A DNA stretch of 64,000 nt, taken from contig JAHQWL010000055.1 in the NCBI GenBank assembly GCA_029856155.1, forward strand, positions 32,001 through 96,000, given 5' to 3'. Under the pieces are notes generated by a model. It saw only the letters and a program-made list of their open reading frames with translations. It was not told the origin of the DNA and made no database searches. A program made the translations under genes and the position numbers. Shown here one piece after another: positions 4,660-32,519 of the stretch. Source of the stretch: Promethearchaeia archaeon. Its GTDB lineage: Archaea > Asgardarchaeota > Lokiarchaeia > Sigyniarchaeales > SOKP01. Within the stretch, counting starts at the first letter, position 1. Every line of letters begins with the position of its first letter.

Positions 4660-6093
4660 ATGACAGAGGAAGATTCTACCTACTTAAATGTCAAGGATGT
4701 ATCGTTCATTAATGATATTAATTCTATTGCTGTTATTGGGCCTTCTAAAAAGCGAGAATACTTTTTTTTAAGAAATCATGCGGAATATTTTAAAGGACCG
4801 ACTTATGCTGTTCATCCTACTGCCGAAGAAATTCCTAATTTTGATAAGAAAAATATTTTTCCATCATTAGAAGATATTCCAGGAGAAGTTGATTTTGCTT
4901 TCATTGCAGTTCCTCCATCCCAGATTTTAAAGACAATAGACGCATGTGTTAAAAAAAAAGTAAAATTAGTTACTGTTTTTACTTCTGAATTTTCTGATTC
5001 TGGTACAGAAGAGGGGATTGCTTTAGAAAAGGAATTGTTAAAACGAGCACAAAATAAACTAAGAATATTAGGACCAAATGGATTGGGAATATATTATCCT
5101 AAGTTAGGTATAGCATGGCGTCCAGGATTTCCAACAAAACCAGGAAATATAGGCTTTATAGCACAATCAGGCGGGATCTGTAATATTGCAATATATGGAG
5201 CAGAAGCATTAGGTATTAACTTTTCGAAAGTATTTTCATTTGGAAATGGAGCAGATATAGATTTTGTTGATTTACTTTACTTTTTAAGTAATGATCCAGA
5301 AACAGACATTATTTTATGTTATCTCGAGGGTATTAAAGAAGGAAGAATTGATGATTTGAAGAAAGTTCTTGAACAAAATAAAAAACCAATTGTATTATTA
5401 AAAGGTGGGCAATCTGAAACGGGCTCTATTGCAGCCAAAACTCATACAGCTTCAATTTCCGGAGATAACCGACTTTGGAAGGCTCTTTTTAGGCAATTTA
5501 ATATTATTGATGTTGAATCTTTGGAACAATTACTCTATGCTGCTCGTTTAATTGACTTTTATGGAATTTTTGAGCTGAAAAATTTAGCAGTTTTTAGTAT
5601 AAGTGGAGGCTATGGTGTGATTTTAGTAGATCTACTTGAGAAAGCAGGTTTTAAAATACCACCATTTAGCCCTGAAATCCAAGATAAACTCAAAACGAAA
5701 TTCTTTTTGCCAGGTACAAGTTCAAATAATCCTTTAGATTTAGCAGCTCAATTTTTCTTTGTAATTTCGGTATATGAAATTATTGATCTAGCAATCTCAG
5801 ATAAAAAGATAGATGGTTTAATTCTAGATATGCCTAGCTTTTATTTAACTCCTGTTCTTAAATCAAGAGATAATCAAGATTTTGAATCTAATATGATAGA
5901 AAGCCTAACCTTGGGCCACAAACATAAAAAACCATTAATTCCTATAATCCAACGTTTAAACAACCCGGAAGAAAGAGAAAAAATTTCAAAAAAGTTAATT
6001 GACAGAAAAGTTCCAGTTTTTGGAGATCCTTTAGAATTTATACCTTTACTGTCTAAGATTTCAAATTATAAAAGAAGAATGGAAAGTTCGTGA
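4660..6093 (+). CDS. Acyl-CoA synthetase (NDP-forming) alpha subunit / CoA-binding protein
   Basis: GPNGLG, AQSGG, SFGNGAD, LKGG...AAKTHT (phospho-His), SGGYG, NPLD; no ATP-grasp beta domain. Confidence 0.85.
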   Translation: MTEEDSTYLNVKDVSFINDINSIAVIGPSKKREYFFLRNHAEYFKGPTYAVHPTAEEIPNFDKKNIFPSLEDIPGEVDFAFIAVPPSQILKTIDACVKKKVKLVTVFTSEFSDSGTEEGIALEKELLKRAQNKLRILGPNGLGIYYPKLGIAWRPGFPTKPGNIGFIAQSGGICNIAIYGAEALGINFSKVFSFGNGADIDFVDLLYFLSNDPETDIILCYLEGIKEGRIDDLKKVLEQNKKPIVLLKGGQSETGSIAAKTHTASISGDNRLWKALFRQFNIIDVESLEQLLYAARLIDFYGIFELKNLAVFSISGGYGVILVDLLEKAGFKIPPFSPEIQDKLKTKFFLPGTSSNNPLDLAAQFFFVISVYEIIDLAISDKKIDGLILDMPSFYLTPVLKSRDNQDFESNMIESLTLGHKHKKPLIPIIQRLNNPEEREKISKKLIDRKVPVFGDPLEFIPLLSKISNYKRRMESS

Positions 6094-16744: not shown

Positions 16745-16860
16745 TAATTTTTTAAATTCACTTTTAATATTTTATTTTTTTGAATAAAACTATATTAAGA
16801 ATTTGGATTATTACTAATTATAGTTAAAATTTCTTAACTAAAGAAGGGAGTGGTCTTAAT

Positions 16861-18141
16861 ATGGAAAATAAAAAAGGAGAAGTTCAATGTATTAATGATG
16901 ATATTTTAGAGAAAATGAGTCTACAAAATCGCTACAATTTTCTGAATAATAATTTGATGAGCATTCTAAAACCCAAGCACTTTAACTTTCTCAGGAAAGC
17001 GCAAAAATTCTTCGTTAGATTTGAAAAAAAACATAATATTACCCATAATGAAGATTTATATGAGTGGATTCCTGAGATTGGTGAAGCAGGCTTAGTAACA
17101 AGAATTAATAAGTTTGATGAGTTGGATTTAAATTATGACCCATATGGTATGACTGCTGAATTTATGCGTTGCCTAGCAGTTGATTTTTTTGATCCACAAT
17201 TAATTATGGGGATGGGTGCAAGTGTATTAACTGTGAATCCTCTAATGCTTCATCATGAAGATGTTGATGTTCGGTTGAAAGCTCTAAAAGAATTAGTACT
17301 TGGAGAAAAAATAGGATGTATATGTATAACTGAACCAGAACGTGGATCTGATGCGGTTCATATGCTTACAACTTGCGCTGAAAACGAGGATGGTAGTTTC
17401 ACTTTAAATGGTGAAAAAATATATCAAACTAATGGTGCTAGAGCAGATTGGGCGATAGTTTATGCTGTTTCAGAAAAGAACAATGGGAATACAATGGCTC
17501 AATTTTTAGTGGATACATCATGGGAGGGGTGGAATGTAGAAAGAATTAACATCCCTTGGACACCACGAGTGTATATAGGCAAAGAAACTTTCACTAATTT
17601 AAGAGTTCCCCCAGAGTATGTTTTAGCAAAACCGGGTTTAGGGAGGGAGTATCTTTTTGAAGGATTAAATATTGAAAGATTAGGAATAGTACTTGCAAAT
17701 GTAGCAGAATGTTGGAATGCGATCTCCCATGCCACTATTTATGCAAACATGAGAAAACAGTTTGATCAGGAAATTTTGAAATATCAAGGAGTTGGCTTTC
17801 CTTTAGGAGAAATGTGGGCAAAAACAATGAGTTTAACATTAGCGACTTTGCATATTTGTCAGATTCTTGATGAAAAAATTGAGCAATTTGGTACTCTTCC
17901 AAAAAACTTTAATTTAGCCCTTGTTGCTACTGCTTCACAGTTGAAATTACAAAGTGCAAAACTGTCAGAACAAATATGTTTCGGATGTGCAGACTTAATG
18001 GGTGGAGCTGGCTTATGTGACAATACTTTAATGAGTGATTTAATCGGGATTTCAAGAATAGCTCAAGTTGGGGGAGGAACATCGCAAATTCAAAAATATA
18101 TAATGAGTTACGCCTTAAGGCAGCTATTTAAAATGTTATAA
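16861..18141 (+). CDS. Acyl-CoA dehydrogenase
   Basis: CITEPERGSD, LNGEK, ER in helix G, RKQF, GGAG, GGGT. Confidence 0.9.
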   Translation: MENKKGEVQCINDDILEKMSLQNRYNFLNNNLMSILKPKHFNFLRKAQKFFVRFEKKHNITHNEDLYEWIPEIGEAGLVTRINKFDELDLNYDPYGMTAEFMRCLAVDFFDPQLIMGMGASVLTVNPLMLHHEDVDVRLKALKELVLGEKIGCICITEPERGSDAVHMLTTCAENEDGSFTLNGEKIYQTNGARADWAIVYAVSEKNNGNTMAQFLVDTSWEGWNVERINIPWTPRVYIGKETFTNLRVPPEYVLAKPGLGREYLFEGLNIERLGIVLANVAECWNAISHATIYANMRKQFDQEILKYQGVGFPLGEMWAKTMSLTLATLHICQILDEKIEQFGTLPKNFNLALVATASQLKLQSAKLSEQICFGCADLMGGAGLCDNTLMSDLIGISRIAQVGGGTSQIQKYIMSYALRQLFKML

Positions 18142-18152
18142 TATATACAGAA

Positions 18153-18174
18153 TTTTTTTTTTTAATTTTTTTTA
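18153..18174 (+). terminator. Oligo-T tract, archaeal intrinsic terminator-like
   Basis: Two long T runs directly after the ACAD stop codon. Confidence 0.4.
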
Positions 18175-18190
18175 TAAATTTATAGAATAG

Positions 18191-19024
18191 ATGGATTTCA
18201 AAATGAAAATTGAAGATTTGACTGAAGTTATTTACGAAAAAGAAGAAAATGGGATCTGTACTCTAACTTTTCATACTCCTGAAAGAAGAAATGCTCTATC
18301 TTATATCACCTCCTTAGAAATTTGGACTGTTCTTGATGATATGGAAAAAGATGAGAATGCTAAAGTGCTAATAATGACTGGTTGTGAAGAAGCTAATGCT
18401 TTTTCCTCAGGAGGATATTTCAATATGAAATATGTAACATCTATTCCTCCAGAAATAATGAAAGAAATCGATCTAATGGATATTGCCCAAAAAAGGTTAT
18501 GTATGAAATTTTGGAATTTTAATAAACCAATTATTGCTGCTATTAATGGGTTAGCTGTAGGTATTGGAATTACATTGCCTTTAGTTGGTGCTGATTTAAT
18601 TTATATTTCAGAAGATGCTTGGTTAGGATTTTATTTTGTAAAACGAGCAATAATTCCAGAATTTAGCTCAACTTTTATTCTTCCATTTTTAATTGGTTTC
18701 CAAAAAGCAAAAGAAATTATATATTTTGGTGATAAAATAACTGCTCGTGAAGCAGAAAAACTTGGATTAGTTAATAAAGTATTAGCTCATGAAGATCTGA
18801 TGCCTTATGTAAGAAAACAAGCCTTTTGCTTAGTTCCCCCTCAAGCCCCTTCAATGGCTCTCAATCGAATGAAAAAAGTAATGCATGATTATTTTAAGGA
18901 TATTTTATCAAGAACATTGGATTTAGAAAATGAAGCTCTTAGAGAGTCTATGAAAACTAGCGATTTTAGAGCAGCAACAAAATCATTAATAACTAAAAAA
19001 GACCCAGTTTTTAAAGGAAAGTAA
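18191..19024 (+). CDS. Crotonase-family protein, enoyl-CoA isomerase-like
   Basis: RRNAL, FSSGG, AINGLAVGIG (first Glu absent), IPEFSS. Confidence 0.85.
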   Translation: MDFKMKIEDLTEVIYEKEENGICTLTFHTPERRNALSYITSLEIWTVLDDMEKDENAKVLIMTGCEEANAFSSGGYFNMKYVTSIPPEIMKEIDLMDIAQKRLCMKFWNFNKPIIAAINGLAVGIGITLPLVGADLIYISEDAWLGFYFVKRAIIPEFSSTFILPFLIGFQKAKEIIYFGDKITAREAEKLGLVNKVLAHEDLMPYVRKQAFCLVPPQAPSMALNRMKKVMHDYFKDILSRTLDLENEALRESMKTSDFRAATKSLITKKDPVFKGK

Positions 19025-19127
19025 AAGATCTCAAATTTGAAAATCATCGAAATTCTTATTAAAAGTGTTTTATATTAATAATTTTATTTTAAAAATATTA
19101 TAATTACTGTTAAAAAAAGTTGATATT

Positions 19128-20810
19128 ATGAGTTCTAACAGTAAATTCGTATTTGTGACGGGAGGTGTCATGAGTGGAATTGGTAAAGGCGTTGCAACAG
19201 CAAGTATTGGTAAAGTACTTCAGTTCCGTGGCTTTAAAGTGTCAGTCGTCAAAATTGATCCATATTTAAATGTTGATCCTGGAACTTTAAATCCTGTTGA
19301 GCATGGTGAGTGTTTTATTACTGAAGATGTTTGGGATTTTAGACCGGTGCATGGATCTGATGAAAGATCGTATAGGATTTCTGAAATTGATCAAGATTTT
19401 GGAACTTATTCGAGAATATTAGGAATTGAGATGCACCCATCACATAATATAACATCCGGTCAAATATATCTTTCTACCATCCTTAGCGAAAGAAAAGGGA
19501 AATTCTTAGGGAAAACTGTTCAGATAATCCCCCATGTGACAAATATAATTAAAGAAAGATTAATGGAAATTGCAGAAAAAGAAGATTTAGATGTTCTATT
19601 AATTGAGTGTGGAGGGACAGTAGGAGATTTGGAGTCAAGCATATTTTTAGAAGCATTTCGACAATTAAAATTAGAGAATCCTAAACGTACTGCATTTGTT
19701 CATGTAACGCTTATCCCTTATTCTAAAGCAGTGGGACAACAAAAATCTAAACCCACTCAACATTCTGTTAAAATGCTTCAAAGTTTAGGATTACAACCAG
19801 ATATAATTATTGGGAGAAGTGAAAAACCTTTAGATAAAGACATTAAGAGAAAAATATCATTGTTCTCTAATGTACCAGAAAACGCTGTAATTTCAAATCC
19901 TGATTTAGAAATTGTGTATGAATTGCCTTTATTATTCGAGGAACAGGGATTAGGAGATCTGATTTGCGAACTCATAGATTTGAAAGCTAAATTAGTAGTT
20001 TATAGTGAAGTGAGTAATTACTCTGAGTGGGTGAAAATGGTTGAATTATTCAAAAAAGCTAAAAAGACAGTGAAGATTGCTATGCCTGGCAAATATTTTA
20101 ACATTTCAGATTCATACATATCTATTAATGTGGCTTTAGAAGACGCTGCTGCTCATTTAGGATATAAGACAGAACTTAAAATGATTAACATTGAAGAAAA
20201 CACAGATTTTAGTGATCAATTGATAGATTGTGATGGAATTTTGCTTACACCCGGATTTGGTGAAAGAGCAGTAGAGGGAATGATAAAATCAGCAGAATAT
20301 GCTATGGAAAATAAAGTACCATTTCTAGGGATTTGCTTTGGAGCTCAATTATTTTTTGTAGCCTTTTGTAGAAAGTTTCTCGGTTTAAAAAATGCTAATT
20401 CAACTGAAATTGCTCCCAATACACCATATCCAGTCGTAGATATTTTAGAAACTCAGAAAGAAGTCACTGAAAAAGGTGGTACAATGAGGTTAGGTGCTCA
20501 AAAAATAATAGTTGAAAAGAACACTCGGCTTTATGAAGCATATAAACAAAAAGAAATATATGAACGATATCGACACAGATTTCACATTCAAGAAAGATTT
20601 ATAACAACTGAAGCAAAAGAAAAAGGTTTGCGAGTATCTAGCCGAGATGAAACAGGAACTATTATTAATAGTATAGAATTAGATAGAAAAGATCATTGGA
20701 TGGTTGGTACACAATTTCACCCTGAATTTAAATCTAGACCGTATAATCCTTCTCCATTATATTTAGATTTTATTAAAGAATGCGTTAAAAATAAAGGGTC
20801 CAAAGGATAA
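19128..20810 (+). CDS. pyrG: CTP synthase
   Basis: VTGGVMSGIGKG, KIDPYLNVDPGT, TVQIIPH, ECGGTVGD, KSKPTQHSV, GICFG, RHR, QFHPE. Confidence 0.97.
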   Translation: MSSNSKFVFVTGGVMSGIGKGVATASIGKVLQFRGFKVSVVKIDPYLNVDPGTLNPVEHGECFITEDVWDFRPVHGSDERSYRISEIDQDFGTYSRILGIEMHPSHNITSGQIYLSTILSERKGKFLGKTVQIIPHVTNIIKERLMEIAEKEDLDVLLIECGGTVGDLESSIFLEAFRQLKLENPKRTAFVHVTLIPYSKAVGQQKSKPTQHSVKMLQSLGLQPDIIIGRSEKPLDKDIKRKISLFSNVPENAVISNPDLEIVYELPLLFEEQGLGDLICELIDLKAKLVVYSEVSNYSEWVKMVELFKKAKKTVKIAMPGKYFNISDSYISINVALEDAAAHLGYKTELKMINIEENTDFSDQLIDCDGILLTPGFGERAVEGMIKSAEYAMENKVPFLGICFGAQLFFVAFCRKFLGLKNANSTEIAPNTPYPVVDILETQKEVTEKGGTMRLGAQKIIVEKNTRLYEAYKQKEIYERYRHRFHIQERFITTEAKEKGLRVSSRDETGTIINSIELDRKDHWMVGTQFHPEFKSRPYNPSPLYLDFIKECVKNKGSKG

Positions 20811-20839
20811 TTACATTGGCTCCCAACTTTTTATATATT

Positions 20840-21496
20840 CTAATCTTTTCCTATGGGACAACATTCGATACAGATATTACACCATAACACTGTATTATCT
20901 GATAGTTTCTTCAAATTTGCTAGACAATATGCTAAACAAACATCCTTATTATATTTCCCTTCTGAAAAAGCATTAGCAGGGCAAGCTTCAACACAAATGT
21001 CACAATCAATGCAATAATTGCTTTCATAAATTGGATTCCCTTTTAATAACGGTGCATCGGTTGCTAAAGCCCTTAATCTCACTTGTGAACCATATTTTGC
21101 TGTTATTAGCAAATTATTTTTTCCAATTGGACCTATACCTGCTAATGCTGCTGCTTCCTTTAGAAAAAGACCAGGTTTATATGGAATAATTTTTGATTTA
21201 AAACCATTTTTTGCTAAAAAGTTTTTAATTTTATGACATTGATTAACGAGGATCGAATCAGCATAGTGATAATTCACATTTTTATTCTCATCTTTACTCC
21301 ATGCATCGAGAAGTAAATCGTATAAATGAAGTCCAATAATTACAACTGATTTCGTTTTTTCTAAAAATGAAGAAGGTCTATTATCTAACTGATATTTATC
21401 AAAGAATTCTGGATTTGCAAAACCCACTAAATCAATACCAATATTATCACAATAATTTATTAACTCTATTGTAAGATTTTCATTTTTAATCAACAT
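20840..21496 (-). CDS. QueG / reductive-dehalogenase-like cobalamin-2x[4Fe-4S] protein
   Basis: AAALAGIGPIGKNNLLIT..YGSQVRL...TDAPL, CIDCDICVEACP, CNICIECCP. Confidence 0.8.
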   Translation of the reverse strand: MLIKNENLTIELINYCDNIGIDLVGFANPEFFDKYQLDNRPSSFLEKTKSVVIIGLHLYDLLLDAWSKDENKNVNYHYADSILVNQCHKIKNFLAKNGFKSKIIPYKPGLFLKEAAALAGIGPIGKNNLLITAKYGSQVRLRALATDAPLLKGNPIYESNYCIDCDICVEACPANAFSEGKYNKDVCLAYCLANLKKLSDNTVLWCNICIECCPIGKD

Positions 21497-21587
21497 TTAT
21501 TCAACTCTAATAATGAATTCAGATATTAAATTTAATATTTCAAATCCTTTTTGATTAAGTAAAGATAAAAGATAGAACTAGAATAAT

Positions 21588-23237
21588 TTATTTTATTCCA
21601 AGTCTCTTTTTTTCTTGTGCAATTAATTCCCTGCGTAATATTTTACCTGAACCCGATTTTGGAATGTCATCAACAAATTCAACCTCACGGATCTTCTTAT
21701 AAGCAGATATCCTTTCAGTAATCCAATCCATAATTTCTTGCTCTGTCACCTTTCCTTTAGACTCTGGTTTTAAAATGATAAATGCTTTTGGGATTTGACC
21801 AACATCTAGTTCTGTAGATGGCTTACCAATAACAGCAGCATCAAATACATGTGGATTCTTAAAAATTAAGTCTTCAAGTTCAGCCGGTGCGATGCTCCAA
21901 CCTTTATATTTTATCATTTCTTTGATGCGGTCGAGAAGATGCTCATACTCTTCATCGTCTATATAGGCCATGTCACCAGTTCTAAGCCATTTTTCTCCTG
22001 TTTTGGGATCAATCCAAAATGCTTCCTCAGTAGCTTCGCGTCTTTTCCAATAACCTTTCATAACCTGAGGTCCCTTAATAACCAATTCACCAGTTTGACC
22101 ACGTTCAGGTAACTCTTTACCTGTCTCTAAATCAATTATTTTATGAAATGTATCTGAAAGTAGAGTGCCTTGAGATTCCATTTTACGGCGATACATTGGA
22201 TTTACAGCTACAACCGGAGAAGCTTCAGTTAAACCCCAACCGTGTTGGATAGTTGCTTCTTTAGCATTGCATTTCTCCTTTGCGAGTTTATCAAATCTTT
22301 CAAGAAGTTCAAGAGGGATTGGTGCGGCCCCATTATTAAAGATTTTTAAATTTGCCCAATCGTATCCTTTTATATTAGGGTCTTCGAGATGTCTAACTAC
22401 ATCAAGAAATATTGGGGGTACGCAAAGACTATATGAAACTTGATATTTTTCAATAAGTTCGCAGAATTCTTTTACTTTAAATCGAGGGGTCACCACCTGT
22501 GCGGCACCTAACAATATTGCTTGATTCATTCCCACATTTAAACCATAAATGTGGTAAAGAGGGAGTACAATAATAGCAATGTCCAGTTCACTTAACTCAA
22601 AAGTTTGAGATACTTGAATTATATTTGATACAAGATTATAATGGGTGAGCATGGTTCCTTTTGGCAACCCTGTTGTTCCACTCGTATATACTAATGTTGC
22701 AAGATCATTTTTTACGTTGAATTCGCATTCTGGGGGATCTGGTTTTGTTTTTGCCATTATATCTGACCATCCAATAGTTCCATTTGGTATGTCTGGTTTT
22801 TCTTCTGATTCTATGACTATAATGTTTTTAAGATTTGTTCTATCTTTAACTACTGCTACATATGGATATTCAGATTGGGAAACAATGATATTCTCAGCTT
22901 CAGAGTCATTTAGTTCATATTCTACCTCCGTTTCTTTAAATTGTGGATTCATAGGGACTAAAATAGCTCCTGCTTTTTCTAATCCATAAAAAGAAATTTC
23001 CCATTGGATTGAATTTGGACCATATAAAGCCACTCTATCTCCCTTTTTTACTCCTAAATTTTTCATTACTGTAGCAAATATATCAACTTGTTCTTGAAAG
23101 TGTTTGAAGGTAATTTTCTTAGGGTATAGGAAGGCAGGTCTATCTGGAAATCTTTTGGCTGTGTCTTCTAAAACTTTATGAATAGGAATTTCAGGATAAT
23201 AAAGATGGCCTCTTTTGAATTTAACCACTATTTTCAC
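21588..23237 (-). CDS. Long-chain fatty-acid-CoA ligase (AMP-forming)
   Basis: YTSGTTGLPKG, GWGLTE, RTGD, DRIKEMIK, PKSGSGKILRR. Confidence 0.92.
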   Translation of the reverse strand: MKIVVKFKRGHLYYPEIPIHKVLEDTAKRFPDRPAFLYPKKITFKHFQEQVDIFATVMKNLGVKKGDRVALYGPNSIQWEISFYGLEKAGAILVPMNPQFKETEVEYELNDSEAENIIVSQSEYPYVAVVKDRTNLKNIIVIESEEKPDIPNGTIGWSDIMAKTKPDPPECEFNVKNDLATLVYTSGTTGLPKGTMLTHYNLVSNIIQVSQTFELSELDIAIIVLPLYHIYGLNVGMNQAILLGAAQVVTPRFKVKEFCELIEKYQVSYSLCVPPIFLDVVRHLEDPNIKGYDWANLKIFNNGAAPIPLELLERFDKLAKEKCNAKEATIQHGWGLTEASPVVAVNPMYRRKMESQGTLLSDTFHKIIDLETGKELPERGQTGELVIKGPQVMKGYWKRREATEEAFWIDPKTGEKWLRTGDMAYIDDEEYEHLLDRIKEMIKYKGWSIAPAELEDLIFKNPHVFDAAVIGKPSTELDVGQIPKAFIILKPESKGKVTEQEIMDWITERISAYKKIREVEFVDDIPKSGSGKILRRELIAQEKKRLGIK

Positions 23238-23401
23238 TTATTTAAATATTTTTTTAATAATTATATATAGTCTTCATTCAAATTTTAAATATATTAAGAT
23301 GAAATTTCATTATATATAGTAGTTTCTCAACAAGCAAAAATTTTTATGATATTATTCAAGCAAATTTAGATGATCAGAAAAAAAATCACTATTTATTATC
23401 T

Positions 23402-26254
23402 TCATAATTTATTTGTTTTTGAGATTTCTAACATAGATTTTATATGATTCATAAAATTTTCATTTGAACAGAGAGATAATAGCTCTTTTTTTACAATTTC
23501 CGCAGCATCATTCCTTTCTCTAAAATCAAAAGGAGAAATAATTCCAGAAGAACTTTTCTTTTTTAAACCCTCTATAATTTTATCTATTTCTATAGAAAAC
23601 TGATCTAAATTATCTAAGCTTTCAGATAACGCAGCGGGAAGATTTGAATGGACTTTTTTTAACGAATTAGAAAATTTGAGTACTTTTTGAGAGAAATTTA
23701 GCCTTTCCTTTAATATTTCACTAACCTTTTCTGACTCGTTAAGGAGTTTGAACATGATTTCATAAAATTTAAGTTCATTCTTATCTCTATTGAGAAATTT
23801 GGTTAAATTTCTAATCTTTTCAGTTGTATCGAATTCTTCCAACTGTTCATATTCGCTTATTTTAGTTTCAGACTCCTTTATTTCCAAATTGAGGAGATCA
23901 AGCTTTTGATTACTCAAATATGTATCTAATTTCATTATTTTTTTTTGATATTCTTGTTCATCAAGTATAATTCGAGTTGTATCAAGGAATCCTGGTAAAC
24001 AGTCATAAATATATTTTAATATTGAGATGTAGATTGAATGCTCTGTATTAGCAATTGGTCTTGTATAGAACTCTATAGCGTCTATATTATCGCTTAGATC
24101 CACTAAAGATTTGAAAACTTTTCTTAATTCCAACATATTTCTTTGAGCATCTAATGCTATAGAATACATCTCTTCAAAATATTTTTTATAGAACCTTCTT
24201 GCCAATTCAAGTTCATTTAAAAAATCATTAACAAGTGGTATTAGCTCTCCTGAAGAGCTTGGTTTTTTATATTCTTCACCAATGTCTTTTAACCGATCCT
24301 CTTCTCTCACTGTTATCATTTTGACTATAAATTCTGGAAAATCTTTTGTAACAATATCATAAGTCTTAATGAAATACCTTTTTTTGCTTAAGATTGGGAT
24401 AATTGTATTTATTGTCATAGTTCTCTTTTGAATAGCTTTTAAATCTTCTTCTAGTATTCTGTTGATATTCTCATCTATTTTCTTTTTATTTTCCAGATTT
24501 GAAATTTTTCTATCTTTTAATAGTTGATTAAGCCGAATTCCTCGTATCTGTGCATTTCGACCTCCAAAAATCTCTACAAAAATTCCTCCAAGAATTCTAA
24601 TCGCTAAAGCTCCTGCTAATACTTTATCTTTCTCCTCATCGACTAAAATCTGATTTGTTTGCATATTCATTAATCTGAACATGAATGATTTCTCTTTTTC
24701 TCTTGGTATCTCATGAATTTTTGTTCTGTATTTCTCAATAATTTGAACTTCTGGTAATTTTTTTTCCCATAATAATTCTAAGATTCGATCTCCTTCAACT
24801 TTTGGAAGAATGTCTAAATAACGAGGGATAATCTCAATTAAAGCTTTTGCCCAATTTGAATGTTCAATTGCTAATGGAATTTCCTCGTGATAATCAGCTA
24901 ATAAGTCATGAATTAATCCTCCTTGCTCTAAAACTTTTGGCCCACTATATCTCCCTAGTGTATGCACAAGAATCTCATCAAAAGTAGGTTCTGATGAAAA
25001 AGGCATACGAACTTCCATTTTTTTTATAAATTCTTGATATAAATCAAATAATCCACGTACTTTATGATTTGATCTATTAATAATGAATTGATTAACTTCT
25101 GCCTTATTCAAATCTCCAATTTCTACTAAAGATCTTGCAAACATGATTGCTCCATTAAATATTAATTCTACTTTTTCAGGTTCGTGATATGACGCGGTTT
25201 CTGAATATTTAAACAAATATTTTGCAAGATCCGACCCTAGATATTCTCTATGTTGCTCAGGAATTTGATCAATTGCACCTAACAACTCTTCCATAAGCAT
25301 TTGAATCATATCTTGTCCAAGAATTCGCGAATATTTTTTTTCTGATCTTTTTAAAAAAGCTTCGACATCTGTAAACTGAACACGCTCTTCTTTCTCTCCA
25401 AATAAATGAGATAATATATCTTCAAGTTTATTGCTATTGTTTAATAAATTGCCTTTTTTAGCTTCTTCTAAAAATGCATCGAATAAATCCATTAAAGAAT
25501 GTAGCTTATTATTACTTCTTATTCTTATTTCTTGATTAATTTGATCCCATGTTTTTCCATCTAAATCTTTTATTGACTCAGAAAATAATAAAGTATGAGC
25601 TAATATATTGTCTAATGTTTCTGTAGAATATCTATTGACATTTTGAGATAATTTGAATAAATATTTTGAAATTTCAGAACTCATTTGATCTCGATGTAAT
25701 TCCTCAATTTGTTCGAATGATTTCATGAGTCTTTCTGTATAGGATTGGAATTTATCTTTTCCCATTTTTCTATAAAAACTCTTCTCAGCACGTTTAATAA
25801 ATAGTTCAACATCATTCATTTGAGAGAATTCTTCCTTTCCACCAACTAAATATGTCAATAAATCTTCAAATCTTTCGAGATTTTCTAAAACTTCACCTTT
25901 TTTCGCTTTCTCAATAAATGCATTTAATAAATCAGAAAGATTTCTCATTTCATTATTACTTCTATTAATTAACATCTGATTTACCTGATTCCTATCTCGA
26001 TTTACTAGATCTTTTAGAGATTCTGCAAATATGAGAAAAGACTTCAAAACAGCCTCAGTAATCGCAAGAGAGACATCTTCAATCTCCTGTGAATAATTGA
26101 AAAGAGATTTTGGTATTTCAGAGCCGATAACGCTTCTAAATTTAGCTGGAATTTCATTAGTAGCTTTCTTTATACTATTTAAAATGGTTAATGCCTTATT
26201 TTCACCTAATTTACTCTTAAAAGAACGTTCAGCCCTTTTTAAAAAGACTTCCAT
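23402..26254 (-). CDS. Hypothetical 950-aa helical protein with three tandem 148-aa repeats and a helical/coiled-coil C-terminus
   Basis: Long ORF; gapless self-alignment of aa 1-148, 149-296 and 297-~438. Confidence 0.85.
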   Translation of the reverse strand: MEVFLKRAERSFKSKLGENKALTILNSIKKATNEIPAKFRSVIGSEIPKSLFNYSQEIEDVSLAITEAVLKSFLIFAESLKDLVNRDRNQVNQMLINRSNNEMRNLSDLLNAFIEKAKKGEVLENLERFEDLLTYLVGGKEEFSQMNDVELFIKRAEKSFYRKMGKDKFQSYTERLMKSFEQIEELHRDQMSSEISKYLFKLSQNVNRYSTETLDNILAHTLLFSESIKDLDGKTWDQINQEIRIRSNNKLHSLMDLFDAFLEEAKKGNLLNNSNKLEDILSHLFGEKEERVQFTDVEAFLKRSEKKYSRILGQDMIQMLMEELLGAIDQIPEQHREYLGSDLAKYLFKYSETASYHEPEKVELIFNGAIMFARSLVEIGDLNKAEVNQFIINRSNHKVRGLFDLYQEFIKKMEVRMPFSSEPTFDEILVHTLGRYSGPKVLEQGGLIHDLLADYHEEIPLAIEHSNWAKALIEIIPRYLDILPKVEGDRILELLWEKKLPEVQIIEKYRTKIHEIPREKEKSFMFRLMNMQTNQILVDEEKDKVLAGALAIRILGGIFVEIFGGRNAQIRGIRLNQLLKDRKISNLENKKKIDENINRILEEDLKAIQKRTMTINTIIPILSKKRYFIKTYDIVTKDFPEFIVKMITVREEDRLKDIGEEYKKPSSSGELIPLVNDFLNELELARRFYKKYFEEMYSIALDAQRNMLELRKVFKSLVDLSDNIDAIEFYTRPIANTEHSIYISILKYIYDCLPGFLDTTRIILDEQEYQKKIMKLDTYLSNQKLDLLNLEIKESETKISEYEQLEEFDTTEKIRNLTKFLNRDKNELKFYEIMFKLLNESEKVSEILKERLNFSQKVLKFSNSLKKVHSNLPAALSESLDNLDQFSIEIDKIIEGLKKKSSSGIISPFDFRERNDAAEIVKKELLSLCSNENFMNHIKSMLEISKTNKL

Positions 26255-26561
26255 TATTAAACCACTTTCAGATTACAAAAAATGTTAGAAATATGATATT
26301 CAGTTAAATATAGTTCATTAGTTCAATTAGATAATTAAATAACCTAAATGATCAATTTAAATTTATGTTTAAGGAATAATTGGAATTTAATTTTAAAGCA
26401 TTTAATTTAATATCTTTCATTAACTTCTGCAAGATAGATTATCATTCAAATTCTTTTTATAAATGTTGGAAAAGAATACTTATTAACAACTAGTACAAAT
26501 TAAAATTATTAAATTCAAGAATTTATAATTAAATAAAAAAAAAAAATTACAGGTTTTAAAT

Positions 26562-27698
26562 ATGGCAAATGAAATTGAAGCAGAATATCAGAAAGCTGCT
26601 AATATACTCAACAAAGCAGGGGTGTTTCCTTATCCAATTACCAAAACTACTCTTAACATTTTAAAATTCAATATTAAAGAAGAAAATTTGGATCTTGTAA
26701 TGGCATTTAAGAAGGATATCTCACAAACGATGGAGCAATTGAAAGAAAGCAGTGGATTATCTGAAGAAGAAATTTTAAAAAAAGTTGACGCTCTTGCGAA
26801 GAGGGGGGTCCTTTTCAATCAACCAAATAGCCAAGGAATTATGGTTTATCGGTTACTCCCAATTGCTAGACAATTGGAATATAACTTCATGAAAAAACTT
26901 GATAAAACAGGAGAAAATGATCAGCTTGCAAAATTATTTCATGAATTTAATGAAGAAATAAAAGATCTTTTTTATTCAAATCAAGAGAGATTTGAATCAA
27001 CATTAAAAAATTTACCACCTATCGATAGAACTGTTCCAATTTTGGAGAACCAAGAGACGGGTGAAGGAATTAATATCATTGTAAATGAAGAAATAGAAGT
27101 ACCTACAGAAAAAATATTACCGACCCAAAAAATTGAAGAGTTAATTGAAAAATATGACGATATTGCAGTAGGGTATTGTTATTGCAGGCAACATAATGAG
27201 TTTTTAGGTAATCCGTGTAAAAAAATTGAACTTACGCCAACTTGTTTTACTTTAGGCAAGTCTGCTAGGCATACTTCTAATCATGGCTTCTCAACCTTAG
27301 TATCCAAAGAGGAGGCATTAAAAATCTTAAAGAAGTGTGAAGAAGCTGGACTAGTTCATAAAGCATATCATTTACATAGCGATATCTATAAAGATGAAGT
27401 AGCAGTTTGTAACTGTTGTAGCTGTTGTTGTTTAACTGCAAGGGAGTCCTTGATTTTTCCTGTAGCTAATGCAACTAATTACCTATCTAGTATAGATCAA
27501 GATCTTTGTATAGGATGTGGTACTTGTGTTGAGAAATGTTATAATAAAGCAATTGAATTAAATGATGATAATAAAGCAGAAAGAATAGAAGAATTATGTG
27601 TTGGTTGTGGTGTATGTGCATATTTCTGCCCAGAAAATGCAATATCTCTAATTGAAGGTCCTAGAACTGTAATACTTTTCCCTCAAAAAAAAAAATAA
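26562..27698 (+). CDS. Fe-S protein with a wHTH-like N-terminus, Cys-rich core and C-terminal 2x[4Fe-4S] domain
   Basis: CYCR, CNCCSCCC, CIGCGTCVEKC, CVGCGVCAYFCP. Confidence 0.8.
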   Translation: MANEIEAEYQKAANILNKAGVFPYPITKTTLNILKFNIKEENLDLVMAFKKDISQTMEQLKESSGLSEEEILKKVDALAKRGVLFNQPNSQGIMVYRLLPIARQLEYNFMKKLDKTGENDQLAKLFHEFNEEIKDLFYSNQERFESTLKNLPPIDRTVPILENQETGEGINIIVNEEIEVPTEKILPTQKIEELIEKYDDIAVGYCYCRQHNEFLGNPCKKIELTPTCFTLGKSARHTSNHGFSTLVSKEEALKILKKCEEAGLVHKAYHLHSDIYKDEVAVCNCCSCCCLTARESLIFPVANATNYLSSIDQDLCIGCGTCVEKCYNKAIELNDDNKAERIEELCVGCGVCAYFCPENAISLIEGPRTVILFPQKKK

Positions 27699-27759
27699 AA
27701 TAATAAAAACTACTTTTTTCTTTTCATTAAAAAATTAATTAAAAACTATCGGTAAAATA

Positions 27760-28599
27760 CTAATCTATTATAGCATAAGCATTTCCAAGAACTATAGCTC
27801 TTTCTGTTCGTACTTGAATTATATAGCCTCCATTATCTTTCCAACCTTCTGTAGTTAAAGTTTCTCCTGGATATACTTCAGAAGTAAATCGTGCTTTGAA
27901 TTCTTTAAATCGTTCCACGTCTCCATTACAAGCACCATAAATTATAGACCGTGTTGCAAAACCATATGTACATAACCCATGAAGAATTGGTCCTTTAAAT
28001 CTTCCGCTTTGACTCGCAAATTCAGGATCTATATGTAGAGGGTTAAAATCACCACTAAGTCTATACAAGGCTGCTTGATTTTCAGAAGTTTTATAACTAA
28101 TGCTAAAATCTGGTTTAATACCTTCGGAAGGATTTAGAGGTTCAGATTTTGGACCGGGATCACCACCAAAACCTCCTGCACCAAGATAGAAAAAAATCCA
28201 ATTTGTATCAAAAACCGTTTCATCCTCTCTCGTGCTTCCCGAAACTTTCATATGAATAACAGCAGCCTTGCCTTTATCAAAAATATTAATGACTTCTCCT
28301 TGACAAACTATTTCTCCTGATGCAGGAAAGGGCTTATAAAGTTTGATTGCTTGCTCACCATGAACAAAATGTGAGAAATTGATATTTCCTAGCTTGTTCA
28401 ACTGAAGACCGCTCTGAGCAACAATACAAGCATAACTAGGGAATACTTTTAACCCACCTTTAACTCCTTCATAAACAAATTGTAACTCATCCGGTTGGGC
28501 ACCAATCCCTATGTTATATAATACCACATCTTTCCAAGTATACTTAAAAGTAACTTCAGGATATTTTTGACCAATAACATCAAGATTTAACCCTGACAA
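27760..28599 (-). CDS. MaoC double-hotdog (R)-specific enoyl-CoA hydratase 2 (MFE-2 hydratase-like)
   Basis: YRLSGDFNPLHIDP, PILHGLCTYG, VHGEQ; TTG start preceded by GGTGA. Confidence 0.9.
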   Translation of the reverse strand: MSGLNLDVIGQKYPEVTFKYTWKDVVLYNIGIGAQPDELQFVYEGVKGGLKVFPSYACIVAQSGLQLNKLGNINFSHFVHGEQAIKLYKPFPASGEIVCQGEVINIFDKGKAAVIHMKVSGSTREDETVFDTNWIFFYLGAGGFGGDPGPKSEPLNPSEGIKPDFSISYKTSENQAALYRLSGDFNPLHIDPEFASQSGRFKGPILHGLCTYGFATRSIIYGACNGDVERFKEFKARFTSEVYPGETLTTEGWKDNGGYIIQVRTERAIVLGNAYAIID

Positions 28600-28690
28600 T
28601 ATTTTATCACCTTCGATTAATTATTTTATCTCCTATTATAATAATTATTTAATGTAAAATAATGTTTGTCTGTAATTTTTATTTGATATT

Positions 28691-29584
28691 TTAAATAAAT
28701 CCACTTCTCTTTAAGCCTTCAACAAGCCACTCCATAGTCTTTTCTAAAACTTCAATATATCCTAACTTGATAATTTTCGACTTAGGTATGAATTTCTCAT
28801 GATACTTGAGAGCTAAGTAATTATATGAAGGATTTTCTTTAAACCACTTAATAATTGAATTTTTTGTAGAAAAATGTAATTTTTCCATACTATTTATTAT
28901 TTGATCGAAATCCTCATCTTTCCATACCCCATAATGGGCTAATGATATTGAATTCAATTCATCTTTCATATTCCTAAGTCTTTGAAACGTCTTTAATAAT
29001 TCTGCTTCATGAAAATCTGGTGGCATGAAAGTTGGTTGGAAGTAATAAATACTAGATTTATCAATAATTGCATCACCAGTAAATATATTCTTATTTTTTT
29101 TGTCAAATAGCGCAATAGAATCCATAGTATGACCGAAAAAGTCAAGTACTTTCAATTCTAAACCATTTAAATCTATAGTTTGATTATCTTTTAAAGGCAC
29201 AACACCTTCTATTGGATCTGTTTTAGCTGCAAATACTTCATTAATATTATTTGGATTTTTTAAATTCTCTATGGCATTTTTCGAGGCTAAAACCTCAATT
29301 TCTACGTCTTTAATTAATTTTCGTAATTCATGGACACCGTCTGTGTGGTCAAAATGAGAATGTGTAAGGAAAATCTTATGTATAGGATAAATATTTAATT
29401 CCTTCAATCTTTCAATAATCTTGGGTATTGTAGTTTTTTCAGAGGCATCGATCATCATTCGAGTACCCTCATTTTCAAGGACATAAATTGAAAGATTTCC
29501 CTTTCCCCCAAATAAATATCCATCAATCAACCACGTATTTTCATTAAACTTTCCTTCTTTATTTATAAAAACCAATATAACCAC
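28691..29584 (-). CDS. Metallo-beta-lactamase-fold hydrolase
   Basis: THSHFDHTDG, GHT, TGD, AHYG. Confidence 0.85.
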   Translation of the reverse strand: MVILVFINKEGKFNENTWLIDGYLFGGKGNLSIYVLENEGTRMMIDASEKTTIPKIIERLKELNIYPIHKIFLTHSHFDHTDGVHELRKLIKDVEIEVLASKNAIENLKNPNNINEVFAAKTDPIEGVVPLKDNQTIDLNGLELKVLDFFGHTMDSIALFDKKNKNIFTGDAIIDKSSIYYFQPTFMPPDFHEAELLKTFQRLRNMKDELNSISLAHYGVWKDEDFDQIINSMEKLHFSTKNSIIKWFKENPSYNYLALKYHEKFIPKSKIIKLGYIEVLEKTMEWLVEGLKRSGFI

Positions 29585-29668
29585 TTTTTATCTGATTTTC
29601 TTTAATTAAGAAAATTAAATTGAGATAAATTTTATTATGAAAAAAAAAAAATAAATTTATTGATGAGT

Positions 29669-30946
29669 TTAAGCATCAAGATTCTCTATGACCGTTGCTA
29701 CGCCTTGCCCACCACCGCAACAAGCATTTGCAACACCATACTTTGCTTTCTTATCCTTCAAAATCCTTGCTAATGTTCCAGTAAGACGAATTACTGTTGA
29801 TCCTAACGGGTGGCCAATCGCAGTTGATCCTCCCATAACATTAACTTTTTCTTCTGGTATATTAAATTTGTCCATGCAGTTTAAGGTTACAATCGTAAAT
29901 GCTTCATTTATTTCCCAGTAATCTATATCATCAGCAGTTAAACCCGCACTCCTTAACGCTTTTTTAGTTGCTGGAACTGGTCCTCTCCCCATTACAGTAG
30001 GATCTACCCCTGCCCATCCAATTGATACAATTCTGGCCATAGGATTAATCCCTCTTTTTTCTGCTTCTTTCGATTCCATTAAAACTGCCGCAGTGGCTCC
30101 TGCATTTAATGGGGATGAATTCCCTGCGGTGATAACGCCTTGATCGGTACCTTCTCTTTTTATATAACCTTCACGACCTCCATTTTTTTCCAAGAAAAAC
30201 GGTTGTGTTAGTCTTCGTAATTGAGATACTGTCTCTAAAGTTGATTTTCTAGCATTCATATCTCTATCAATTATCATCTTTTCTTCTACATTCCCGGGAG
30301 CATGCCCTTCAATTGGAATGATTTCACCTTTAAACCACCCTTCATCATGATATTTAACGGCCAAATTGTGACTTCTAACTCCAAATTTGTCTAAATCTTC
30401 TTTAGTGAAGGTAGGGATTTCTTCTTCGTAGAGTTTCTGAGCTGTTAGCAGCATATTGTATACTACGGAAAAATCTAAATCAGGGCGATAGTATTCACTG
30501 TTCTTATTTGCTACTTTTAAATTAGGTTCTGTTCCCTTACCTCGAACTCTGGTCATATGCTCGAATCCAGTACTTAAGACGCAATTGCTATTACCCGTCA
30601 TGATTTCCATAATCCCTACATGCATTCCACTACCTGCTGAACCACATTGACGATCAATAAAGAATGAAGGGACTTCATAGGGAAAATCAGCTAAAAATAA
30701 GGGCATTCTACCCCCATACGTCCAATTCTCTAGCACACCAGCAGCAACTCCAACAGATACTTCTTCAATATCTTTCTTTTCTATGCCTTTATCAGCTAAC
30801 TTATCTTCAAATAGACTTTTCAATAACTGTGCCAACAACTCATCTCCTCTAATCTCACCAAAAACATCCCTTTCGGGTTGAGTAGGTCTAGATCGAGAAA
30901 AAGCGGTACGAGCATAATCAATCAACCAAGTTTCCTTTAATTCCAT
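29669..30946 (-). CDS. Acetyl-CoA acyltransferase (thiolase)
   Basis: DRQCGS, TAGNSS, NEAF, GHPLG, CCGGGQG. Confidence 0.93.
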   Translation of the reverse strand: MELKETWLIDYARTAFSRSRPTQPERDVFGEIRGDELLAQLLKSLFEDKLADKGIEKKDIEEVSVGVAAGVLENWTYGGRMPLFLADFPYEVPSFFIDRQCGSAGSGMHVGIMEIMTGNSNCVLSTGFEHMTRVRGKGTEPNLKVANKNSEYYRPDLDFSVVYNMLLTAQKLYEEEIPTFTKEDLDKFGVRSHNLAVKYHDEGWFKGEIIPIEGHAPGNVEEKMIIDRDMNARKSTLETVSQLRRLTQPFFLEKNGGREGYIKREGTDQGVITAGNSSPLNAGATAAVLMESKEAEKRGINPMARIVSIGWAGVDPTVMGRGPVPATKKALRSAGLTADDIDYWEINEAFTIVTLNCMDKFNIPEEKVNVMGGSTAIGHPLGSTVIRLTGTLARILKDKKAKYGVANACCGGGQGVATVIENLDA

Positions 30947-31233
30947 CTTATTTTCACTTTTTAAATTCTTGTTTTTAAATAAGTTTACATTGTCTATTAA
31001 TTATTAATATGAGTTAATGATATTATTTTAAGGATTTTAATTTAATATATCAACTTTACGAAGGTTAATGGATGATTATTCATATTTACTAATAAATATT
31101 TTAAATAATTTCTTTCGATTCAAATTTCTTTAAATTTTTTGATAAAAAAGTAGCATTTAAAAAGATTAACACATACTTTTGTATGATTTCGCTTGAGAAA
31201 TCCAATTTAAAAATTAAAAAGAGGCGTATAAAA

Positions 31234-31542
31234 ATACCTTATATAGTAACATTTACATAGTATCCTCCTTCTTTAGCAAATAAAGTTGCTCAGAGATATT
31301 TAGAAACACTTCAAAAATACCCACTAATCTCTAGTATTAAACGCATTGTTCCCGCAGCTGTTTCATCAACAAAAGAAGGACTTGAAGTTTTTCTTGTTGA
31401 TGAAGTAAAACGAGAAGATGTAGGAGAAGCTTTAGATTATGCGTCAAAATTTTTAGTAGAATTTTTTGATATTGAGGGTTTTAGATATGCAATTAGGACT
31501 TTTAATACATTAAATGAAGCTATGGGATATATAGGAAAATAG
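31234..31542 (+). pseudogene. Small (102-codon) gene with ATA at the start position and an in-frame TAG at codon 9
   Basis: Not in ORF track. Frame reads IPYIVTFT*YPPSLANKVAQRYLETLQKYP...EAMGYIGK*; protein-like composition; GAGG about 10 nt upstream. Confidence 0.6.
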
Positions 31543-31691
31543 TGTATTTAGAGAGACCTTAATAATTAGTAATGAAATCTCAAAAATTTTTTTTCTTTAT
31601 TTCTAGTATTATAATTTACTTAGAATTAACCAATTATGATAATTATAAGATCTCATAAATAATTAAAGAAAAAATAGATAAGTTTAATATA

Positions 31692-32519
31692 TTATTTTCC
31701 TTGAAATTTTGGAGATCTCTTTTCTAGGAATGCTGTAATTCCTTCTCTGACATCTTGTGATGTAGTATTCAAAGCATATCCCCAATGCTCAAATTGTAGT
31801 CCCACATTCAATGGTACTTGAGTCCCATATTGAATACACTTTTTAATAACGAAAAGTGCATTTGTAGCAGAATTTCCGATCTGAAAGGCTTTCTCATGAA
31901 CAAATTCTTCAAACTTATCATCATCAACTAAAAAGGAAATAAATCCCCAATCATTCATCTGTTCAGCAGTAAAATGTTCACCAAAATACATCATTCGATT
32001 AACTCTCATTTTGCCGATCTGTCTTATCATCCGTTGAGTACCCCCATTGGCAGGAAAAATACCTCTTCGAATTTCAGGGAAGCCAAATTCTGATCGTCTT
32101 GATGCAATAACTATATCGCAAACTAGTACTAATTCTAATCCACCCCCAAGAGCATAACCATCGACAGCTGCAATTAAAGGTTTTGGAAATGCTTCAATTA
32201 AATTATAATAATTGTGCCTTATATACATGGCATGGCTACGATGTCTAAGGTTTTTAGGATCAAGTCGGGTATCTCCTCTTGCAGAAAGATCCGCACCGGC
32301 AGAGAAAGCAGGCTTTTTAGTGAATTCTCTAGTTCCACGTATAATTACACAACGAACACTTTTGTCTACTTCTACTGTTTCTAATGCTTCAGCAATTTCT
32401 TTAAGTGTTTGATTCTGAAGAGCATTCAATTTATCGGGACGAATTATTGATACAACAGCATAATTCCCCTCCTCAACTTTTTCAATTTTTACATGTTGAA
32501 ACTTTTTTTCTTCACTCAT
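31692..32519 (-). CDS. Enoyl-CoA hydratase (crotonase)
   Basis: KLNAL, AFSAGADL, GGGLEL and FPEI (both catalytic Glu present), GGTQR. Confidence 0.9.
   Translation of the reverse strand: MSEEKKFQHVKIEKVEEGNYAVVSIIRPDKLNALQNQTLKEIAEALETVEVDKSVRCVIIRGTREFTKKPAFSAGADLSARGDTRLDPKNLRHRSHAMYIRHNYYNLIEAFPKPLIAAVDGYALGGGLELVLVCDIVIASRRSEFGFPEIRRGIFPANGGTQRMIRQIGKMRVNRMMYFGEHFTAEQMNDWGFISFLVDDDKFEEFVHEKAFQIGNSATNALFVIKKCIQYGTQVPLNVGLQFEHWGYALNTTSQDVREGITAFLEKRSPKFQGK

Follow-up and report, generated by a model that had tools for sequence, protein, structure and literature searches.

A gene for a 950-residue protein with a triplicated all-alpha domain in one lineage of Lokiarchaeia: an undescribed family and a possible multivalent adaptor

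Asgard archaeal genomes are searched for hints about the complexity of eukaryotic cells, and their chief unexplored resource consists of large, conserved proteins annotated as hypothetical. We have studied one such protein, P0001, which is encoded in a 64,000-nucleotide stretch of a contig from a lokiarchaeial Promethearchaeia archaeon (assembly GCA_029856155.1, contig JAHQWL010000055.1, positions 32,001–96,000; this whole stretch is hereafter called the window). The complete coding sequence lies at 23402–26254 on the minus strand, where a 2853-nt open reading frame (ORF), including the stop codon at 23402–23404, encodes 950 amino acids, as the original prediction, made from the letters of the window alone, had proposed. 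The start methionine falls at the same aligned position in all homologues, and the gene is genuine, single-copy, and under purifying selection. On the minus strand, three tandem repeats come first: repeat 1 (residues 1–148; 25811–26254), repeat 2 (residues 149–296; 25367–25810), and repeat 3 (residues 297–444; 24923–25366). They are followed by a C-terminal body of two lobes. Lobe 1 (residues 445–695; 24170–24922, minus strand) is a conserved helical domain with a hydrophobic helix at residues 540–563 and the invariant residues G565, N567, and R582, and lobe 2 (residues 696–950; 23405–24169, minus strand) is a long-helix bundle with helices at 782–803, 810–868, 872–902, and 908–945. Upstream of the start codon, an AT-rich intergenic region (26255–26561), which is a putative promoter region, separates the gene from a divergently oriented Fer4 gene.

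P0001 is a soluble, mildly acidic, all-alpha cytoplasmic protein. The whole chain has an isoelectric point (pI) of 5.9, carries no clusters of cysteine or histidine, and has no signal-like sequence at its N-terminus. Its single strongly hydrophobic stretch, residues 545–563 (Kyte–Doolittle score, 2.08), contains an arginine and a glutamate within a confidently predicted helix and is thus probably a buried core helix rather than a membrane segment. Neither Pfam and NCBIfam scans nor inspection of the sequence revealed an enzyme family or a cofactor motif. The proposal that the protein lacks a signal peptide, a transmembrane segment, and an enzyme motif is in keeping with these results.

The three repeats align with one another without a gap, repeats 2 and 3 being 41 and 28% identical to repeat 1, respectively. 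When the repeats were compared with each other by BLASTP, the E-values were 1e-34, 2e-23, and 7e-26; these are far beyond chance, and the triplication is therefore real, with the third copy extending to residue 444. Twenty-six columns are invariant among the three repeats of P0001, including K6, R7, and R98-S99-N100. The Lys-Arg and Arg-Ser-Asn motifs that the original prediction had noted in all three copies are accordingly present in this protein, but N100 is not conserved across the family: among 56 repeats of 19 homologues, S55 and F76 are invariant, and conservation reaches 90% or more at F4, R7, G17, Q93, R98, S99, L106, L109, and G138. A profile of the repeat, run against the whole 4.1-Mb assembly, matched the three copies in P0001 and nothing else. 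In a maximum-likelihood tree of 33 repeats, the copies grouped by position, with support of 100/100 for repeat 3 and 95/88 for repeat 2, and repeat 1 grouped with a single-repeat form described below (88/89). This grouping by position indicates that the triplication is older than the divergence of all sampled three-repeat proteins. The C-terminal body was also considered as a degenerate extra repeat and rejected as such: despite weak BLAST hints, hhalign comparison of the repeat profile with the C-terminal profile gave a probability of 0.3%.

An AlphaFold2 model of full-length P0001, built with the family alignment, was all-alpha, with a mean predicted local distance difference test (pLDDT) score of 84 and a predicted template modelling (pTM) score of 0.47. 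The segments with a pLDDT below 50 coincide with the repeat boundaries (residues 140–146, 289–294, and 437–444), apart from a further short one at 696–698. When modelled alone, a single repeat (repeat 1) reached a pLDDT of 89 and a pTM of 0.84 and consisted of eight helices arranged as four pairs. A low pTM for the whole chain combined with high confidence locally is consistent with three flexibly linked beads and, after them, a two-lobed helical body. In the models, then, the repeat is an eight-helix, solenoid-like domain, and linkers of 6–10 low-confidence residues separate the beads. Residues 445–950 were modelled as about 20 helices, mostly of 10–40 residues, of which 810–868 (59 residues) alone is long, and heptad-like windows are restricted to around residue 456, 687–735, and 841–875. 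The helical character that the original prediction had assigned to the C-terminal 500 residues is thereby retained, whereas a long continuous coiled-coil tether or stalk is not what the model contains; there, the region is predicted to fold into helical domains. A homodimer prediction with two copies of residues 445–942 gave a score of 0.01, which weighs neither for nor against self-association.

To compare the constraint on these parts, the ratio of nonsynonymous to synonymous substitution rates (dN/dS) was calculated by the Nei–Gojobori method against ten congeneric orthologues; dS was partly saturated, and the ratios are approximate. The ratio was 0.10–0.15 for the whole gene and 0.08–0.20 for repeat 1. 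Repeat 2 was the least constrained copy (0.17–0.37) and had the lowest column conservation, and repeat 3 was the most conserved (0.03–0.11), with 40 columns conserved at 90% or more. Residues 445–695 and 696–950 gave 0.07–0.11 and 0.08–0.15, respectively. Since the regions rank alike by dN/dS and by column conservation, the functional core consists of repeat 3 and lobe 1.

No characterized relative was found by any of the searches made. Pfam and NCBIfam scans of P0001 and Pfam scans of 47 aligned homologues returned nothing above threshold. P0001 and the single-repeat protein P0109 matched no PADLOC-DB 2.0 family at E ≤ 1, and neither PHROGs (best E, 0.1) nor a sequence search of the PDB with the repeat and full-family profiles (best E, 0.11) gave a significant match. 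An exhaustive hmmsearch with the repeat profile against 1.84 billion representative proteins yielded 28 matches, all of which were members or fragments of the family except one, P0120, a spurious low-complexity match that was discarded as a relative. The profile of the C-terminal half likewise retrieved nothing but fragments of family members; the body is accordingly not found by itself. In structural comparisons with the PDB, Foldseek reached a best E-value of 0.11 with the whole model and of 1.4 with the bead. The best match among viral models (BFVD) had an E-value of 0.026 and a template modelling (TM) score of 0.10 and involved generic tape-measure-like helical proteins, VIA-align wide gave no significant match with either model, and all TM scores in an ESM Atlas structural search were below 0.5. 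Structural matches of helical models such as these lie in the noise range for helical proteins. The nearest class that can be named is that of alpha-solenoid or helical-repeat scaffolds, in the form of designed proteins (PDB 9dd2, 6xss, 5cwg, and 5cwf), the best structural neighbours of the bead being designed binders and scaffolds. We found no literature on the family, which the databases label as hypothetical protein. The family and its domain are thus undescribed, although their kind is familiar, namely that of a tandem-domain helical protein of a narrow lineage. The view of the repeat as an uncharacterized all-alpha domain in triplicate is upheld by both the models and the searches, there being no high-probability match to a known domain in Pfam, NCBIfam, the PDB, the ESM Atlas, or the 1.84 billion proteins.

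P0001 had been called an orphan; this holds in that it has no characterized relative, but not with respect to public data, in which we found 95 homologues among 5.8 billion clustered proteins, at 36–84% identity. All the named ones come from Asgard metagenome-assembled genomes (MAGs). Most are exactly 950 residues long and 61–84% identical to P0001, a second tier of about 1035 residues stands at 39–43%, and a CR_4 Loki protein at 36%. An alignment of 47 sequences contains almost no insertions or deletions (indels) across the 950 residues, down to 36% identity, the longer forms merely adding a C-terminal tail. In the 39–43% tier, this tail is an extra module of about 85 residues (P0078, P0090, and P0093, residues ~950–1040) with a conserved EE(I/V)NPLE...FWLK pattern, beyond which P0093 carries an acidic low-complexity tail; no Pfam domain was found in the C-terminal tails of the homologues of 1035–1136 residues. 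In three orthologues (G201:C5:37287-40130, G225:C135:6560-9403, and G249:C21:213836-216673), the match includes a single stop (TAA or TGA) near the 3' end, which may be the normal end of a somewhat shorter protein or a true disruption.

To survey the distribution, the family profile was run on 400 genomes, each representing a species of the phylum. Of the 134 genomes in the window's own family, 42 had a match, as did the only sampled genome of a sister family, and there was no match in about 265 genomes of 31 other families. Among the 53 species of the window's genus, 31 carry the gene, and several of the genomes without it are 95–100% complete. The family therefore occurs in a single lokiarchaeial lineage of family rank and is neither Asgard-wide nor eukaryote-linked, and the suggestion that P0001 might be a general Asgard protein did not survive this survey. 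NCBI labels several homologues that are 65–85% identical to Loki-type proteins (P0017, P0021, P0042, P0059, P0060, P0075, and P0076) as Heimdall-, Hermod-, Hod-, Odin-, or Thorarchaeota. Because the survey places the family in one family-level lineage and one sister genome, these MAG labels are probably unreliable.

The gene is accessory and dispensable in close relatives. A sister species of the same genus, G185, whose genome is 100% complete, has no match to the family, yet it retains both flanking genes, which encode a Fer4 protein (97% identical) and an AMP-dependent ligase (91%) and which stand divergently about 326 bp apart. In a DNA alignment, window positions 21500–23438 and 26432–27709 are collinear with G185 (L023; G185:C19:1-3400), and the roughly 3 kb between them are absent. 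Each of the two breakpoints in the window carries a copy of the hexamer ATAGAT (23433–23438 and 26434–26439), and the segment that these copies delimit, 23433–26439, is the one missing from the orthologous site. At the empty site, a remnant of the final ~12 ORF codons survives, its stop codon mutated, which indicates loss by deletion in the G185 lineage, not insertion in the window. The paired hexamers suggest that the deletion was associated with microhomology, a reading that is just suggestive, as ATAGAT is found 28 times in the 64 kb. At 11 congener loci, the Fer4 flank is common to five and the ligase flank to two, and this sharing is consistent with vertical inheritance. Between subfamilies, the neighbourhoods are entirely different, and no conserved operon partner was found. 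One distant homologue lies among genes for a SIR2_2–leucine-rich repeat (LRR) protein, SIR2 proteins, and DDE transposases (L001:11671-14145, 5410-5616, and 16783-17583), another adjoins a type IIG N6-methyltransferase/Eco57I gene (L003:5697-7784), and a third is surrounded by redox genes. The SIR2/transposase and type IIG surroundings resemble variable or defence-island-like regions.

A rare form of the protein with one repeat is also found. P0109 (649 residues) lies in the interior of a contig and is collinear with residues 297–941 of P0001 at 28% identity, and P0132 (660 residues) is 75% identical to P0109; both genes are complete. A further candidate, P0106 (651 residues), was rejected because it is cut by a contig end. 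The lone repeat of the 649-residue form occupies the position of repeat 3 but groups loosely with repeat 1 by sequence, and the form may be ancestral or may have arisen by in-frame loss of two repeats. The genes for P0109 and P0132 are each followed on the same strand by a gene for an Arf/Ras/Roc-family GTPase of 179–185 residues, with a gap of 54 bp in one contig. In L024:1335-3856, which belongs to a contig of JGI 3300028835, the stop codon of the first gene overlaps the start codon of the second in the sequence TGATG (3315–3319), suggesting that the single-repeat gene and a Rab/Ras-like GTPase are translationally coupled. In the assembly that contains the window, 58 or more paralogous small GTPases of the Ras/Rab/Arf-like kind are encoded; they are 31–45% identical to the coupled GTPase, and none of them stands out. 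Several of these paralogues stand in tandem clusters (e.g., C21:46433-48290, C28:43565-46384, and C88:57625-64479), and some lie in open frames of 330–540 residues, which may be fusions.

We consider it about an even chance that P0001 is a non-catalytic multivalent adaptor. Each bead keeps the same polar positions, a Lys or Arg on helix 1 and an Asn/Gln-x4-Arg-Ser motif at the end of helix 6; in such a protein, all three would thus probably bind one type of ligand, mounted on the conserved core of repeat 3 and lobe 1, and a unique function or anchoring would be supplied by the C-terminal body. That the polar residues are conserved across paralogous repeats sharing no more than 28–41% identity supports this role, as do the bead-like models, the negative searches for an enzyme family, cofactor motif, or Cys/His cluster, and the designed helical-repeat binders and scaffolds among the bead's best structural neighbours. 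Given that the single-bead form appears translationally coupled to a GTPase, Ras/Rab-like small GTPases are the best candidate class of ligand. The single-bead protein would then act one-to-one with its coupled GTPase, and the triplicated 950-residue form would gather or regulate several GTPase paralogues. RhoGAP, RasGAP, TBC, and RGS domains are compact all-alpha regulators or effectors of small GTPases that present a conserved Arg and an Asn or Gln. The bead, all-alpha with conserved Arg and Asn/Gln residues and co-transcribed with a GTPase in its single-copy form, resembles them by functional analogy; it differs in that the searches run matched it to none of them in structure or sequence and in that the three-bead genes do not stand beside GTPase genes. 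Indeed, none of these four classes gave a Pfam match or appeared among the top 50 VIA and Foldseek bead neighbours listed, a result that leaves room for distant kinship.

Several points weigh against the adaptor and its proposed ligands. The polar positions may be conserved as helix caps for the sake of the fold and not as a binding site, and the adaptor role is one that we infer, with partners that are candidates only. The two contigs with a linked GTPase are relatives at 75% identity and count as one evolutionary observation. No GTPase gene adjoins the three-repeat genes in the four distinct contexts examined, nor does one occur on this 164-kb contig, and with 58 GTPase paralogues a specific orthologue is unassignable. 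The bead neighbours listed include no known GTPase-binding fold or GTPase-activating protein (GAP) fold, and the beads themselves are acidic (pI 5.6–5.9). The GTPase lead is therefore real but thin, coming from one lineage only, and the full proposal, in which the 148-residue bead would be an effector- or GAP-like domain newly invented in Lokiarchaeia for binding small GTPases, and its triplicate a trivalent hub for several of the ~58 GTPases, is unlikely as matters stand.

Other roles were weighed against that of a non-catalytic adaptor. The exact 148-residue period and the scarcity of indels might reflect the geometric constraints of a periodic assembly, in which case P0001 would be a self-assembling structural protein, such as a building block of filaments, lattices, or cages. 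The almost complete lack of indels in 47 full-length homologues, with a module length identical in nearly all of them, speaks for this idea, as do the all-alpha helical-repeat architecture with its long C-terminal helices and the designed fibre and helical-repeat proteins near the bead; we nevertheless regard it as unlikely, since the gene can be dispensed with and is patchily distributed even among congeners, nothing indicates an assembly partner or high abundance, and the structural matches are of the level seen by chance among helical proteins. That same patchiness in close relatives, with a clean single-gene indel and a gene that stands alone with no conserved neighbourhood, would suit an accessory conflict or defence protein or a mobile-element cargo, for example, a sensor or decoy that carries its recognition module in several copies, and the type IIG, SIR2-LRR, SIR2, and transposase genes beside distant homologues point in the same direction. 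Such a role is improbable on the other evidence, however: there is no PADLOC or PHROGs match and no viral structural relative, the protein lacks an effector or NTPase domain, and it evolves slowly under strong purifying selection, unlike typical arms-race proteins. Moreover, the G185 site is a deletion rather than an insertion, the locus is common to several congeners, and its window neighbours comprise genes for enzymes of the beta-oxidation type and for CTP synthase. A membrane-active or membrane-remodelling helical protein, with helix 545–563 shielded in the soluble state as in alpha-pore-forming toxins, or with a shape like that of BAR domains or dynamin stalks, would make use of the one strongly hydrophobic stretch; the charged residues within that helix fit a buried core better, and we consider this role very unlikely.

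Two further readings were considered. P0001 might be a cryptic enzyme or nucleotide-dependent regulator with an unrecognized all-alpha fold, or its beads might derive from AAA+ lids. Hda_lid (PF22688) matched 12 of the 47 members weakly, with a best E-value of 0.0035 at residues 385–407 over the RSN region, Dynein_AAA_lid (PF17852) and AAA_lid_1 appeared sporadically and weakly, ATAD2 and Rad24-RFC were matched at low Z, and a short motif around N-R-S-N-x-x-x-R-x-L resembles the sensor-2 region of such lids. However, the match spans about 23 residues and scores 17.7 bits against a cut-off of 27, and P0001 has no P-loop ATPase core; membership of the Hda_lid family was accordingly rejected, and we see little chance for this reading as a whole. 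Scarcely credible, finally, is a hidden divergent homologue of a eukaryotic cytoskeletal protein, such as a formin homology 2 (FH2) domain or a tandem bundle of the vinculin/alpha-catenin type. Formins and P0001 are both all-alpha with long helices, and the lead itself came from a language-model feature similarity of 0.79–0.82 in the ESM Atlas, a range that one third of shuffled sequences reach; a match to INF2 (9azp) amounts to one superposable 64-residue helix. At the sequence level, the idea is largely refuted by a direct search, on which we rejected the formin lead: Pfam FH2 (PF02181) had no match at E ≤ 10 in six frames of the whole genome, while chance matches arose in 9 of 14 control genomes, and at the same threshold FH2 was neither found for P0001 nor among the recurrent families in the scan of 47 members. 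FH2, vinculin, or catenin structures were not among the top Foldseek and VIA matches listed. Unlike formins, P0001 has no FH1 polyproline tracts, and its family is confined to one archaeal lineage. The cytoskeletal or tethering function that the original prediction had envisaged thus found no link here.

P0001 need no longer be considered a candidate eukaryotic signature protein, since its family belongs to one lineage, is dispensable there, and gave no sign in our tests of kinship with formins or other cytoskeletal proteins. It offers instead a clean case of recent lineage-specific domain invention followed by exact triplication. If the GTPase lead were true, it would offer a first handle on the wiring of the very large GTPase repertoires in these archaea, and a hub of the kind outlined for the adaptor would amount to a counterpart, evolved independently in archaea, of the multivalent Rab/Arf effectors of eukaryotes.

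Around the gene, window positions 16861–32519 are dense in beta-oxidation-type genes, which encode an acyl-CoA dehydrogenase, two enoyl-CoA hydratases, a thiolase, a MaoC/MFE-2 hydratase, and the AMP-dependent ligase. Genes for a CTP synthase, two ferredoxin-domain proteins, and a protein of the metallo-beta-lactamase fold are also located in this region.

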